Source: Escherichia coli (lineage in GTDB: Bacteria; Pseudomonadota; Gammaproteobacteria; Enterobacterales; Enterobacteriaceae). From it: a stretch of 64,000 nucleotides of DNA. The notes under the pieces are model-generated. The model did not search any database. It was not told where the DNA came from and saw only the letters and a program-made list of their open reading frames with translations. The translations under genes and the position numbers were made by a program. Below are positions 27,805 to 35,245 of this stretch, piece after piece (position 1 is the stretch's first letter; each line of letters begins with the position of its first letter). The stretch lies in the NCBI RefSeq assembly GCF_050320075.1, contig NZ_CP190018.1; one strand, 5' to 3'.

Positions 27805-30270
<2,466 letters not shown>

Positions 30271-30286
30271 GTTCGCTAAAAAACAG

Positions 30287-30314
30287 AACGGGGCCAAAAG
30301 GTCCCGTTTTTTTT
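30287..30314 (+). terminator. rho-independent terminator of glgP
   Basis: aacggggcc-aaaa-ggtcccgtt hairpin followed by an 8-T run. Confidence 0.65.
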
Positions 30315-30386
30315 CGCCTTTATTTAGGAAAAGTGTCCAGAGGGGGCGAGGGTTATCGGGGAGTATAATTTCGCCATTCAGCAAGA

Positions 30387-31904
30387 ATGGAAAGAATAAT
30401 GCAAAACGGAAAATGGATTTTGACCTCGCTGGTAATGACTTTTTTTGGCATCCCCATACTGGCGCAATTTTTGGCAGCGGTTGTTGCCATGCTGGGGGCC
30501 GGGCTTGCCGCTATTCTTGAGTTTTGCAATTTACTCTTTACACCAACAATTTATCTTCTACTCAACGTCTTTATGCTGACGCTGGGCGCATTACTGCTAT
30601 TTTTCTCTGGGCGAGTGTGGGCGGGCGATAGCGCACCAGAAAACAGAGAAATAGCCGCCTGGCGACAATGTCTTTTTTTAGTTCCCGCTTTATTAACCCT
30701 GGTTGGCTGGATAATCACGCTACATCTGGCAGATTATCAATTTCGCCAGATGGGAGCCGGTTGGTTGGCAAACCTTATGCTTCCCTGGTTGGGCGTTTTT
30801 ACAGTCTCATTCGTCGGTGGTGAGTACTGGTGGATAGTCATTATTCCCGTTGGCGCGCATATCAGTTTTTCACTGGGATACGGCTGGCCGACCAGACACC
30901 CTTTAACCGGCACCTCCGGTCTACGTTGCCGTAATTTACTTCTGTTCATTCTTCTCTTACTGGGTATTGTCGCTGGTTATCAGGCTTATTTATATAAACA
31001 GCTTAATCCCGGCGTCGGTGTGCGTGAAAATATTGATACCTGGGCCTGGCGACCCGATAAACTTAATAATCAACTGACGCCACTGCGTGGTAAACCACAA
31101 ATTCAATTTACGCAAAACTGGCCGCGACTCGATGGCGCTACGGCGGCGTACCCCATTTATGCCTCTGCATTTTATGCATTAAGTGTAATACCAGAGGATT
31201 TTCACGTTTGGGATTATCTGGATAACTCTCGTACGCAAGAAGCATATAACAAAATCGTTAACGGTGATGCCGATATTATTTTCGTGGCGCAACCTTCCGA
31301 TGGGCAAAAAAAACGCGCTGAGAAATCGGGCGTCACTTTGCTGTACACGCCATTTGCCCGTGAAGCGTTTGTTTTCATCGTCAATGCGGATAATCCGGTT
31401 AATTCCCTGACTGAACAACAAGTGCGTGACATTTTTAGTGGCGCAATTACCAACTGGCGCACGGTTGGCGGTAACGATCAGGAGATCCAGACCTGGCAAC
31501 GCCCGGAAGACTCTGGCAGCCAGACAGTGATGCAATCGCAGGTCATGAAAAATGTCCGCATGATCTCGCCGCAGGAAACCGAAGTGGCAAGCATGATGGA
31601 GGGAATGATTAAAGTCGTTGCCGAATACCGTAATACAAACAACGCAATAGGCTACACCTTCCGCTATTACGCAACACAAATGAATGCCGATAAAAATATA
31701 AAACTGCTAGCGATTAACGGTATTGCACCGACTGCAGAAAATATTCGCAATGGCAAATATCCCTATGTCGTCGATGCATTTATGGTAACGCGGGACAATA
31801 TGACGTCAGAAACACAAAAACTGGTTGAATGGTTTTTAACGCCGCAGGGGCAGAGTCTGGTGGAAGATGTGGGCTATGTGCCGCTGTATCCAACAATGAA
31901 ATAA
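30387..31904 (+). CDS. membrane protein with N-terminal multi-TM domain fused to a periplasmic PstS-like (PBP-like_2) binding domain
   Basis: 505 aa; first ~190 aa hydrophobic; C-terminal domain has the PstS-type motif NPVNSLTEQQVRDIFSGAITNWRTVGG and QRPEDSGSQTVM; tataat -10 at 30364-30369; alternative start ATG 30399. Confidence 0.8.
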   Translation: MERIMQNGKWILTSLVMTFFGIPILAQFLAAVVAMLGAGLAAILEFCNLLFTPTIYLLLNVFMLTLGALLLFFSGRVWAGDSAPENREIAAWRQCLFLVPALLTLVGWIITLHLADYQFRQMGAGWLANLMLPWLGVFTVSFVGGEYWWIVIIPVGAHISFSLGYGWPTRHPLTGTSGLRCRNLLLFILLLLGIVAGYQAYLYKQLNPGVGVRENIDTWAWRPDKLNNQLTPLRGKPQIQFTQNWPRLDGATAAYPIYASAFYALSVIPEDFHVWDYLDNSRTQEAYNKIVNGDADIIFVAQPSDGQKKRAEKSGVTLLYTPFAREAFVFIVNADNPVNSLTEQQVRDIFSGAITNWRTVGGNDQEIQTWQRPEDSGSQTVMQSQVMKNVRMISPQETEVASMMEGMIKVVAEYRNTNNAIGYTFRYYATQMNADKNIKLLAINGIAPTAENIRNGKYPYVVDAFMVTRDNMTSETQKLVEWFLTPQGQSLVEDVGYVPLYPTMK

Positions 31905-31929
31905 CGCTCGAGAGAAAGGAATCAGCGCA

Positions 31930-32922
31930 ATGAATAAATTCACCTGTGTTTTACTATTAGGTACGGCGCTACTGGCGGGATGTGTCGACCGGGAAGGGTA
32001 CTATAACAGCGTCAGGGAAGAAGACAGCCATGGACTGACGTCTCTGCGGGGGCAACCTGAATTACGTTACAACGATGATTGGTCAAGATGGCCGAGAGTG
32101 TACGGCGCTACAGCCTTATACCCGCTGTATGCCTCCGCGTATTATGAATTAGTACCCGAGCCAAAAGATAAGGATCGAACCTCGCTGGCCTGGCAGGCGT
32201 ATGGTTTGCAACAAACCCGAACAGCTGAAGCCTACGATAGTCTGATTAAGGGTACCGCGACGGTTATTTTTGTTGCACAACCGTCGGAAGGACAGAAAAA
32301 ACGTGCAGAAGAAGCAGGTGTTAAACTCAAATATACCGCTTTCGCCCGCGAAGCCTTTGTCTTTATCGTTGATATCAAAAACCCGGTTAATTCACTTAGC
32401 GAACAGCAGGTCAAAGACATTTTTAGCGGTAAAGTGAGTCGCTGGAATAAAGTGGGCGGCGGTGACGAAGGTATAAAAATCTGGCAGCGGCCAGAAGATT
32501 CTGGAAGCCAAACGGTTATGAAGGGACTGGTTATGCAAGATACTCCAATGCTGCCAGCCAAAAAATCCACTGTTATCGATCTTATGGGCGGTTTAATTAC
32601 CGAAGTCGCCGACTACCAAAATACACCATCTTCTATTGGATACACCTTCCACTATTACGTCACACGTATGAATGACAATATGCTCAAAATGCGCAAACAG
32701 ATCAAACTGCTGGCTATAAATGGCGTTGCACCTACAGAGGAAAATATCCGTAACGGCACTTATCCGTACATAATTCATGCTTATATGGTGACGCACGAAA
32801 ACCCTACGCTGGAAACGCAGAAATTCGTCGACTGGTTTTTAAGCCCGCAGGGACAGCAATTGGTAGAGGATGTGGGCTATGTGCCGATTTATGACGCATC
32901 ATCCGAATCATCAGGACAATAA
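31930..32922 (+). CDS. lipoprotein with PstS-like (PBP-like_2) binding domain, paralog of the C-terminal domain of the upstream gene
   Basis: 330 aa; lipobox LLAGC; shares IFVAQPSxGQKKRAE..GV.L.YT.FAREAFVFIV..NPVNSL.EQQV.DIFSG...W..VGG...I..WQRPEDSGSQTVM with the upstream ORF; SD aaagga. Confidence 0.8.
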   Translation: MNKFTCVLLLGTALLAGCVDREGYYNSVREEDSHGLTSLRGQPELRYNDDWSRWPRVYGATALYPLYASAYYELVPEPKDKDRTSLAWQAYGLQQTRTAEAYDSLIKGTATVIFVAQPSEGQKKRAEEAGVKLKYTAFAREAFVFIVDIKNPVNSLSEQQVKDIFSGKVSRWNKVGGGDEGIKIWQRPEDSGSQTVMKGLVMQDTPMLPAKKSTVIDLMGGLITEVADYQNTPSSIGYTFHYYVTRMNDNMLKMRKQIKLLAINGVAPTEENIRNGTYPYIIHAYMVTHENPTLETQKFVDWFLSPQGQQLVEDVGYVPIYDASSESSGQ

Positions 32923-32924
32923 AG

Positions 32925-33525
32925 ATGAATAAAATCAGACTTTATATTCCTCCGTTAATTCTTGGTTTTGTTATTGTGCCGTTGTTGGTGTGGCCGACGG
33001 TGGTTGCGCTGGCTGCTTGTGTTATCACGCTGAGTTTTATGGGAGAAATACTGTTCTCTATCCCGCTCATGTTCAGGCGTATTTCACTTCTGGAATTCCA
33101 ACTTGGGTTATTGGCTGAATATGCACTTTTTTTTTCTGTGCCATGTGTTGCGTTGGTTGGCAATTTTCTTGCAGAGCTCAATCTGAACTGAAAAGCAGAC
33201 TCCATTGTTGGTTGGTATTTGCACCAGTTTATTTCTGGTTGCTCCTGTGGAATATCATTTTCTATGTCGCGCCAGCGCAAATTGCTTTGCTGGAAAATAT
33301 GCGCAATTTCTTTCTGACCATTGTCTGGTTACCCCTGAATTTTTTCAATTTGGGTCTCAGCCGTGGACTGACTTTATCGGTCCGATAAGCGCCCAGCTTG
33401 GTTTTGCATTGGGATATTATTGCCAGTGGCGTAGCAAAAATAGAAGTCAGAGGAAGAAGTGGGGCGAGTGGGTAATGTGTCTGAGTTTTGTTACGTTGGG
33501 TATGATTGCGTGGGCTTTGCGGTAA
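32925..33525 (+). pseudogene. frameshifted membrane-domain gene, paralog of the N-terminal TM domain of the 30387 ORF
   Basis: Three successive overlapping ORFs in frames 0, 2 and 1 (32925-33191, 33143-33388, 33205-33525) each align to consecutive parts of the TM domain of the 505-aa protein (e.g. NMRNFFLTIVWLPLNFFNLG vs QMGAGWLANLMLPWLGVFTVS; PISAQLGFALGY vs PVGAHISFSLGY). Confidence 0.55.
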
Positions 33526-33576
33526 TTCCTTGAATCAAAAAGTAGGTCAGATTGTTGACGAAGTGCGCTTTGTTTA

Positions 33577-33675
33577 TGCCGGATGCTGCGTGAACGCCTT
33601 ATTTTGTCTACAAAATCATGCAAATTCAATATATTGCATAAACCACGTAGGCCTGATAAGCGTAGCGCATCAGGC
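33577..33675. repeat. REP (palindromic unit) elements
   Basis: gccggatgctgcgtgaacgccttat (partial REP) and gtaggcctgataagcgtagcgcatcaggc (canonical REP) followed by a T-run. Confidence 0.65.
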
Positions 33676-33699
33676 AGTTTTTTTGTTTATCATCAGTCT

Positions 33700-33723
33700 C
33701 AGGTCAGATTGAAATCTGACCTG
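33700..33723 (-). terminator. hairpin immediately downstream of glpD
   Basis: caggtcagat-tgaa-atctgacctg, a perfect 10-bp stem 17 nt after the glpD stop. Confidence 0.45.
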
Positions 33724-33739
33724 ACCACCTTATGTTAAA

Positions 33740-35245
33740 TCACGAAGCCAGCGATAACCTCTGCTGCGTATACTCCACTAGCCACTGACTCACACGAGAT
33801 TGTTGATCCGCATTCAGCCACATGCCTTGTTTTGTGCGACGCCACAGGGCATCGTCGGCACGGCGGACCCATTCGTGATCCACCAGGTATTTCAGTTCCG
33901 CTTCGTAGAACTCATGACCGAAATCTTCCCCGAGATCGCCTATCGCCCCCGCATTGCAGAGCAGCAGCTCGCTGTTGCTGCCGTAAGTGCGCGCGTAGTG
34001 ACGTGCCAGCGATTCGGTCAGGAATGGGTAACGACGGCGCAGACGAGCTGAGTAATCGTCGCGGTCGCCTTCAATGGCACCACCCGGCAGCACGCTCTCT
34101 TTCGTCCATGCCGGGCCAATGCCCTGATAATACGGCGTCAGTTTTTCCAGCGCATGTTCCGCCAGTTTGCGGTAGGTGGTCAACTTACCGCCGAATACCG
34201 ACAGCAGCGGCGCTTTGCCGTTTTCATCATGGATATCAAGGGTGTAATCACGAGTGATAGCCTGCGGCGAATCGGACTCATCATCACACAGCGGACGCAC
34301 GCCGGAGTAGGTCCAGACGATATCGTCCCGGCTTAACTGCTTTTTAAAGTGCGTGTTATACACTTTCAGCAGGTAATTGATTTCACTCTCTTCAATTTTT
34401 ACTGCTTTTGGATCACCTTTGTATTCCACATCGGTGGTGCCGATGATGGAAAACTCGTCCATCCACGGGATCACGAAGACAATACGTTTATCTTCGTTTT
34501 GCAGAATGTAGGCCTGCTTTTGTGTATGCACACGCGGCACCACAATATGGCTGCCTTTGATCAGGCGAATGCCATAAGGTGAGGGTAGATGCATCCCGTC
34601 GTCGAAGAACTGCTTCACCCACGGGCCGGTGGCGTTCACGAGGCCGCGCGCTTGCCAGCTATATTTTTTGCCGGTATCGATATCTTCTGCTTCCACAATC
34701 CACAGGCCGTTTTCGCGGCGAGCAGAAGTGGCACGAGTCCGGGTAAGCACTTCACCGCCTTTACGTACCACCATCTGGGCGTTGGCGAGCACCAGACGGG
34801 CGTCATCTACCCAACAGTCGGAATATTCGAATCCGCGCTTAATTTCCGGTTTTAATACTGAATTTGCGCCAAAACGCAAACCGGTTGATCCCGGTAGGCT
34901 GGTGCGTTTACCCAGATGATCGTACATAAACAGACCAATCCGAATCATCCACGCCGGGCGCAGATGCGGACGATGCGGCAGGCGAAAACGCATCGGGAAG
35001 GCGATATGCGGGGCCATTTTCAGTAGCACTTCACGTTCAGCCAGCGCCTCGCTGACCAGGCGGAATTCATAGTGCTCAAGGTAGCGCAGGCCACCGTGAA
35101 TGAGTTTTGAACTGGCGGAAGAGGTCGCACAAGCGAGATCCTGCGCCTCCAGCATCAGCACGGATAAACCGCGTCCAGCGGCGTCTGCCGCGATACCAGC
35201 ACCATTGATGCCGCCACCTATCACAATCAGATCTTTGGTTTCCAT
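33740..35245 (-). CDS. glpD: aerobic glycerol-3-phosphate dehydrogenase
   Basis: 501 aa from ATG at 35245 (METKDLIVIGGGINGAGIAADAAGRG...); FAD-binding motif. Confidence 0.96.
   Translation of the reverse strand: METKDLIVIGGGINGAGIAADAAGRGLSVLMLEAQDLACATSSASSKLIHGGLRYLEHYEFRLVSEALAEREVLLKMAPHIAFPMRFRLPHRPHLRPAWMIRIGLFMYDHLGKRTSLPGSTGLRFGANSVLKPEIKRGFEYSDCWVDDARLVLANAQMVVRKGGEVLTRTRATSARRENGLWIVEAEDIDTGKKYSWQARGLVNATGPWVKQFFDDGMHLPSPYGIRLIKGSHIVVPRVHTQKQAYILQNEDKRIVFVIPWMDEFSIIGTTDVEYKGDPKAVKIEESEINYLLKVYNTHFKKQLSRDDIVWTYSGVRPLCDDESDSPQAITRDYTLDIHDENGKAPLLSVFGGKLTTYRKLAEHALEKLTPYYQGIGPAWTKESVLPGGAIEGDRDDYSARLRRRYPFLTESLARHYARTYGSNSELLLCNAGAIGDLGEDFGHEFYEAELKYLVDHEWVRRADDALWRRTKQGMWLNADQQSRVSQWLVEYTQQRLSLAS

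Follow-up and report, generated by a model that had tools for sequence, protein, structure and literature searches.

Between glgP and glpD, the 64,000-nucleotide stretch of Escherichia coli DNA analysed here (the window; contig NZ_CP190018.1) carries a locus of three genes, A, B and C, two of which encode proteins with a PstS-like binding domain. On our tentative reading, to which we give a probability of roughly 0.4, this locus specifies a periplasmic receptor for a phosphate-like oxyanion, a receptor that works through a membrane domain of its own instead of belonging to the Pst transporter. Gene A would be an inner-membrane protein in which a six-helix domain confined to this family carries a periplasmic PstS-like flytrap, gene B would be a lipoprotein version of the binding domain, and gene C would be a free membrane domain, dead in this strain. 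The binding domains of A and B would close, with relaxed selectivity, on phosphate or a related tetrahedral oxyanion or phosphoryl group; ligand-induced closure would be passed to the attached membrane domain and from there to partner membrane proteins, and the role would be that of a receptor or sensor accessory and not of an uptake component. The proposal builds on the architecture, the homology among the three genes, their distribution, purifying selection and the lack of pst linkage; from these we infer the ligand class, the periplasmic site and signalling. The features on which it turns are as follows.

30387-31904, + strand: gene A, PstS-like protein with a membrane domain, open reading frame (ORF) of 505 amino acids
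30399-31004, + strand: membrane domain of gene A, six helices
31131-31841, + strand: PstS-like Venus-flytrap domain of gene A (residues 249-485), from Pfam, Foldseek and the family profile
31930-32922, + strand: gene B, lipoprotein paralog, ORF of 330 amino acids
32925-33525, + strand: gene C, pseudogene, from alignment with intact copies

A binding domain fused to a membrane domain

The C-terminal part of gene A matches Pfam PBP_like_2 at residues 249-485 (E 7.6e-32) and contains the motifs GATAAYP, SRT, FVAQPS, QRPEDSGSQT and IGYTFRYY. Its N-terminus consists of about 200 hydrophobic residues that AlphaFold2 folds into six long helices (2-43, 50-79, 84-111, 121-141, 146-166 and 174-203 in the numbering of the 502-amino-acid form). 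The full-length model has a predicted local distance difference test (pLDDT) score of 92.5 and a predicted template modelling (pTM) score of 0.84, the latter of which we read as suggesting a defined arrangement of the two domains; modelled alone, the membrane domain reaches a pLDDT of 91 and a pTM of 0.88. Matches to the six-helix fold in AFDB50 were restricted to its own family and a few free-standing copies, and a profile of the domain searched against 1.84 billion representative proteins returned 221 clusters, mostly fusions of 470-545 amino acids. Helices 4-6 match the three-helix core of shorter relatives from Bacillota (described below). The binding domain of gene A is probably periplasmic, because its paralog is a lipoprotein, the most positive loop lies before the last helix and the forms with three transmembrane (TM) helices have an N-in, C-out charge pattern.

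Gene B also matches PBP_like_2 (E 9.9e-29) and is 58% identical to the C-terminal domain of gene A over 286 residues (E 4e-117). Its N-terminus, MNKFTCVLLLGTALLAGC, ends in LLAGC and places a lipobox, L-A-G-C, at positions -3 to +1, with the cysteine at residue 18 (codon 31981-31983); this fits the pattern [LVI][ASTVI][GAS]C, and related lipoprotein forms keep the lipobox as well. Under the Lol sorting rule, the residue at +2 of a lipoprotein decides its membrane destination, and the valine found there in gene B leads us to expect the outer membrane. Enterobacterial lipoprotein forms that are 55-81% identical to gene B make up its clade. We rejected the idea that gene B is a recent local duplicate of gene A: the lipoprotein forms of Salmonella and Pseudocitrobacter (60-71% identity) are as close to it as gene A is (59%). 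It is a member of an older lipoprotein lineage.

Gene C is split over three reading frames in this strain. Compared with an intact 200-amino-acid copy of the O157 type, its T-run at 33127-33135 is longer by two T's (+2), and one base is missing at about 33345/33346 (-1). Pairwise BLAST against the membrane domain of gene A was suggestive only (E 0.014); compared profile to profile with hhalign, the gene C family and the membrane part of gene A homologs align with a probability of 98.4% (E 5.7e-15, 171 columns). Given this homology, the locus contains both domains fused in one protein and each of them again as a free protein. Genes B and C as an obligate split form of gene A found no support, with C in 71% of genomes and B in 16%, and the occurrence of Salmonella lipoprotein loci without a C-like gene also disfavours such a pairing.

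A preliminary description of this DNA, made from its letters alone, had proposed PstS-type domains in A and B, the paralogy of the two, a multi-TM fusion in A, a lipoprotein with the LLAGC lipobox in B and a degraded third membrane-domain gene, and all of this is borne out by the results above, with matches much stronger than chance would give. Beyond it, gene C is a paralog of gene A's own membrane domain, and the architecture is widespread.

PstS by fold but not by family criteria

The top Foldseek matches of the gene A binding domain are the phosphate-binding proteins 9l8j, 4gd5, 1twy and 4q8r. The nearest solved structures are PstS proteins (E ~1e-14, ~20% identity), and the family profile matches 4q8r/4gd5 with E 6e-32. 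Both A and B thus have the type II periplasmic binding fold (PBP_like_2) expected of the PstS family. The NCBIfam cut-offs for PstS are 206.6 bits for TIGR02136 and 205 bits for TIGR00975. On the former, A (125.2 bits) and B (120.8 bits) both fall under the cut-off, as a short form from Lysinibacillus (139 bits) does; on the latter, B reaches 17.9 bits and A has no entry. No permease or ATPase is a conserved neighbour across 80 related loci, a PstB-type ATPase with a Walker A motif lies near the homolog in only one of them (L084), and the E. coli locus sits between glgP and glpD. The Pho box consensus, allowing up to three mismatches, had no match in the 64-kb window. The proteins are therefore PstS by fold and not PstS by family criteria.

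We mapped the binding site by profile alignment onto the phosphate contacts of Clostridium perfringens PBP-1, namely Ser11, Thr12, Ser13, Ser41, Ser59, Arg125, Ser129, Gly130 and Thr131 (PMC5381212). The family equivalents are Thr249 for Thr12, Thr280 for Ser41, Arg369 for Arg125, Ser373 for Ser129, Gly374 for Gly130 and Ser375 for Thr131, each of them invariant or at least 90% conserved in 82 family sequences. By this mapping of sequence alone, seven of the eight phosphate positions of E. coli PstS appear compatible, counting Ala250 as a backbone contact; at the remaining one, the selectivity aspartate of PstS is replaced by alanine. Solved PBP_like_2 proteins are nearly all phosphate binders (PMC10443332). 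On this basis, we would expect the ligand to be a tetrahedral, phosphate-like oxyanion or a phosphoryl group, and the selectivity for it to be relaxed.

The same evidence bears on whether A and B are accessory scavengers that capture phosphate or an analogue and hand it to PstCA or another distant importer, the membrane part or the lipid serving for retention only. We consider this rather unlikely. The PstS-like fold and the retention of most phosphate-contact positions suit it, as does the finding that loss of the aspartate lowers selectivity and leaves phosphate binding in characterized proteins (PMC5381212); the membrane domain is also weakly conserved (ratio of non-synonymous to synonymous substitution rates (dN/dS) 0.22, vs 0.12 for the binding domain). 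However, pstCAB linkage is missing across phyla, a Pho box is missing from the window, the scores lie under the PstS cut-off and E. coli already has a canonical PstS. Moreover, an anchor of three to six helices with a family-specific fold and conserved motifs far exceeds what a tether needs. The preliminary description had doubted canonical phosphate uptake and suggested sensing or scavenging instead. This suggestion fits the TIGR02136 scores, the single PstB among 80 loci, the lack of a Pho box and the Asp-to-Ala replacement, and may be right.

An old and widespread architecture

Full-length gene A homologs of about 500 amino acids occur in Klebsiella, Salmonella, Intestinirhabdus, Budviciaceae and Rahnella, and in several Enterobacteriaceae they too lie between glgP and glpD. 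A wider search with two family motifs, using one genome per species, found relatives in Bacillota, Actinomycetota, spirochaetes, Synergistota, Planctomycetota, Campylobacterota and Betaproteobacteria, with binding domains 35-47% identical. Almost every relative has N-terminal TM helices, about six in the forms of 475-530 amino acids and about three in those of 380-400, and three to six were seen among members from Bacillota, Actinomycetota, spirochaetes, Synergistota, Planctomycetota and Pseudomonadota. In the short form, the order is a TM helix, a GG turn, a second TM helix, a positive loop, a third TM helix, the motif AGY(E/Q)..AY.NS and the binding domain. The binding domains make up a distinct subfamily, and their combination with a membrane domain is an old, widespread family and no oddity of E. 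coli.

This breadth also bears on whether the protein is a self-contained, ATP-independent uptake device, in which the membrane domain would be a channel or carrier loaded or gated by the fused binding domain. The two domains are almost always fused, the model gives them a confident arrangement (pTM 0.84), and new classes of binding-protein-dependent transporter are still being reported (PMC12344293). Yet the helices have no conserved polar or charged residues, their number varies from three to six and the fold is like that of no known transporter, which makes such a device hardly probable at all.

Across the 80 related loci, no neighbouring gene is conserved family-wide; such conservation as there is proves lineage-specific. 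In four Paenibacillus loci, a gene for a multi-TM histidine kinase stops no more than three bases from the start of the homolog or runs into it (L033, 6622-9098; L046, 6520-8984; L057; L069), and in seven Bacillota loci, a gene for an XRE-type helix-turn-helix protein lies directly upstream. htpG lies downstream in L033 and L046. The gene A homolog of Rahnella inusitata follows a PurB-like gene and directly precedes a response regulator and a histidine kinase (L024, 7953-12218), a pair that we read, from synteny alone, as phoPQ. In Klebsiella and Salmonella, genes behind the gene A homolog encode YbbD-family proteins (NCBIfam PRK09781, Pfam YbbD_head), and ORFs with a YbbD-like N-terminus occupy this position in Pseudocitrobacter and Superficieibacter. 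These YbbD-type genes (L006, 9838-10958; L008, 9564-10109; L018, 9451-10963; L019, 9552-13726) are sometimes multicopy, with a common N-terminal 'head' and differing tails.

Distribution, alleles and selection in E. coli

Among 5426 complete E. coli genomes, in which genes A and C were counted at 80% of their length or more, gene A is present in at least 3347 (at least 62%), gene C in 3828 and gene B in 884, including O157:H7, O55:H7 and BL21(DE3), the last of which has both A and B. K-12-type strains retain only the segments corresponding to window positions 30271-30620 and 33461-33738, so that yzgL consists of the first ~235 nucleotides of gene A fused to the end of gene C. It is what a 2.8-kb deletion left behind in K-12, in agreement with the preliminary description, which had taken the K-12 state to be a reduced remnant.

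In other alleles, the slot between A and C is filled by an unrelated cytoplasmic protein of 255 amino acids, with or without a YbbD-like protein of 236 amino acids. The 255-amino-acid protein, which has no signal peptide, stands in place of gene B in most locus-bearing E. coli (L004, 3147-4627; L003, 3236-4003), and the 236-amino-acid protein sometimes precedes it. Pfam had no match for either replacement protein, and NCBIfam gave a weak YbbD-type match (PRK09781) to the N-terminus of the 236-amino-acid protein and nothing more. The swap junction lies within the last ~15 codons of the middle gene; gene B and the 255-amino-acid protein share the tail YDASSESSG, by which the point of recombination is marked.

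In strain YZLc1-3, the DNA of the region is 100% identical. The locus (window 30271-33739) is ~90.5% identical in DNA to the O157-type locus L002, a comparison between E. coli lineages. When the window allele is compared with that of O157 (dS ~0.30), dN/dS is 0.16 for gene A (0.22 for the membrane part and 0.12 for the binding part) and 0.11 for gene B; the flanking genes glgP and glpD have values of 0.01 and 0.03. A dS of ~0.30, vs 0.13 for the adjoining end of glgP, points to old, divergent alleles. Genes A and B are under purifying selection and are real genes, though dispensable.

We also weighed whether the locus is an eroding remnant without current function in this strain. The two frameshifts in gene C and the deletion in K-12 agree with erosion, as do expression near background in strain EDL933 and the lack of a convincing promoter in the spacer upstream of gene A. 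Against this, A and B are intact, dN/dS between alleles is 0.11-0.16 at a dS of ~0.3, no fewer than 62% of complete E. coli genomes retain gene A and conservation of the family extends across phyla. On balance, we regard a functionless remnant as improbable.

The swapping of the middle of the locus between alleles is one of several observations that would suit an interbacterial-conflict cassette, in which the PstS-like proteins would be orphan immunity or defence factors travelling with polymorphic-toxin arrays. Two gene B-like lipoproteins of Salmonella enterica lie within an array of orphan Rhs tips (L095, 1200-9000), and YbbD-family proteins come after gene A in Escherichia, Klebsiella, Salmonella, Pseudocitrobacter and Superficieibacter; in K-12, ybbD itself presumably belongs to the rhsD orphan region. 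However, common synteny in Enterobacteriaceae may account for the YbbD neighbours, the Bacillota loci have no toxin context, and PADLOC defence models matched none of five proteins. In Citrobacter, what comes after the homolog of the nearest Rhs tip is a 92-amino-acid gene and not a PstS-like one. A conflict cassette is accordingly highly improbable in our view. The specific proposal that the gene B-type lipoprotein confers immunity to the adjoining Salmonella Rhs tip was rejected on the Citrobacter arrangement. The array in L095 also holds a PAAR-like fragment, an HExxH protein, an Ntox34 fragment and a HEAT-repeat protein, and its nearest Rhs tip is broken by a stop codon.

Locus boundaries and annotation

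By reading of the sequence, glgP stops at 30270 and the convergent glpD ends with its stop at 33740. Two further features mark the edges of the locus.

30279-30317, + strand: intrinsic terminator of glgP, a GC stem followed by a T-run, read from the sequence
33560-33680: REP-type (repetitive extragenic palindromic) repeats in the spacer before the glpD stop, a boundary of the locus lying outside it

Genes A, B and C look like one operon, because they are closely spaced (25 nucleotides between A and B, 2 between B and C) on the same strand behind the glgP terminator. That terminator separates the locus from glgP, and the locus would thus need its own promoter in the spacer at 30318-30386. A TATAAT hexamer lies there at 30364-30369; promoter matches in the spacer upstream of gene A were no more numerous than in shuffled sequence, so that any promoter there is putative. 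The start of gene A is uncertain: the longest ORF begins at ATG 30387, RefSeq places the start at 30396 (an ATA codon) and a second ATG lies at 30399. Because of the REP-type repeats, a search with the whole locus returns, at the median, 17 matches per E. coli genome. The Rfam small RNA ES036 (CssrF) has a match at 33612-33654 (+ strand; 43.6 bits vs a gathering score of 37.6), within the REP-rich stretch that separates gene C from the end of glpD. An antisense ORF of 166 amino acids (31179-31679, - strand) lies inside the region coding for the gene A binding domain; antisense ORFs resembling it cluster in 37 of the 80 related loci, and most likely conservation of the sense frame accounts for it.

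RefSeq names both A (WP_122989436.1) and B 'PstS family phosphate ABC transporter substrate-binding protein' and labels gene C a 'frameshifted' hypothetical gene. The locus corresponds to O-island 133 (OI-133) of E. coli O157:H7; in a screen, deleting this island reportedly reduced type III secretion. Literature searches on yzgL and the locus tags brought up no functional work. The locus is thus already annotated and known as an O-island, yet uncharacterized, and its product name is probably misleading.

Weighing the receptor reading

In favour of a receptor, the membrane domain would seem to be more than a tether, given three to six TM helices across phyla, a fold confined to the family and a pTM of 0.84 for the fused protein. 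The lineage-specific kinase and XRE-type neighbours hint at regulation, and there is precedent for a PstS protein that feeds a chemoreceptor, in Pseudomonas aeruginosa (PMC8050422).

Several observations weigh on the other side. Kinase or XRE-type neighbours occur in only 11 of the 80 loci, all from Bacillota, and the E. coli locus has no adjoining kinase or regulator. The membrane domain is poorly conserved and lacks a conserved intramembrane charged residue, Pro20 being its sole invariant position, which fits a passive anchor too. Six helices with the C-terminus outside would put two Lys/Arg-rich segments in the periplasm, as judged from the family-wide charge profile, and topology by the positive-inside rule is ambiguous. 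At the binding site, the position of E. coli Asp56 and PBP-1 Ser59 is Ala298 in at least 90% of the 82 members; with the selectivity aspartate replaced in this way, the ligand may not be phosphate. In PstS, this aspartate mainly sets selectivity and not affinity, and its loss leaves phosphate binding (PMC5381212). The locus is dispensable, being deleted in K-12 and carrying a frameshifted gene C in this strain, and its expression in EDL933 is near background (log2 3.1-4.4; PMC2907692). Finally, the evidence for the OI-133 secretion effect is one gel from a screen, and polarity on glpD or glgP could explain it.

A bolder form of the receptor reading, which we think unlikely, would make these proteins a new class of one-piece transmembrane receptors in which a flytrap is hard-wired to a module of three to six helices. 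Such receptors, possibly as hetero-oligomers with gene C-like paralogs, would relay the binding of an oxyanion or phosphoryl group to kinases or other machinery and would supply an input to phosphate-linked virulence control that is invisible in K-12.

If the receptor reading is true, most E. coli (no fewer than 62% of the complete genomes, O157:H7 and BL21(DE3) among them) have a phosphate-type envelope receptor that K-12 lacks, and its absence from this reference strain would account for its never having been studied. It could also account for the lower type III secretion of the OI-133 deletion, a virulence phenotype that has had no follow-up. The architecture is routinely mislabelled as a Pst transporter subunit in many phyla, and thousands of annotations would be corrected if its ligand and partner were assigned. 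BL21(DE3), which has both A and B, offers a convenient host for experiments.

Comparison with known systems

The closest point of reference is PstS of the PstSCAB importer, for which our comparison set comprised TIGR02136 and TIGR00975, the structures 4gd5/4q8r, 1twy and 4exl, and E. coli PstS. Like it, A and B have the two-lobe PBP_like_2 fold and, by sequence mapping, appear to keep the R-x-x-x-S-G-S/T motif of the C-lobe and two Thr/Ser contacts of the N-lobe. Unlike it, they score under the family cut-off, have alanine for the selectivity aspartate, are not linked to pstCAB, have no Pho box and share extra family-specific invariant motifs (REAFVF, IGYTFRYY and QPS..Q); furthermore, the domain comes either attached to a membrane domain of several helices or as a lipoprotein of its own.

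A substrate-binding domain tethered or fused to TM helices is also known from GlnPQ/OpuA-type permease fusions and from membrane-anchored TAXI-type proteins. In contrast to these, the membrane domain described here is no ABC permease or TRAP component and resembles no solved transporter. For the proposed function, the nearest parallels are PstS-CtpL of P. aeruginosa, LuxP-LuxQ and TorT-TorS, in which, as may be the case here, a periplasmic binding domain acts on a membrane partner and not on an ABC permease. The abutment or overlap of the Paenibacillus homolog gene with that of a multi-TM histidine kinase recalls such signalling binding proteins. Those systems pair a soluble binding protein with a known receptor, whereas in the present family a covalent link joins the binding domain to a membrane domain of its own.

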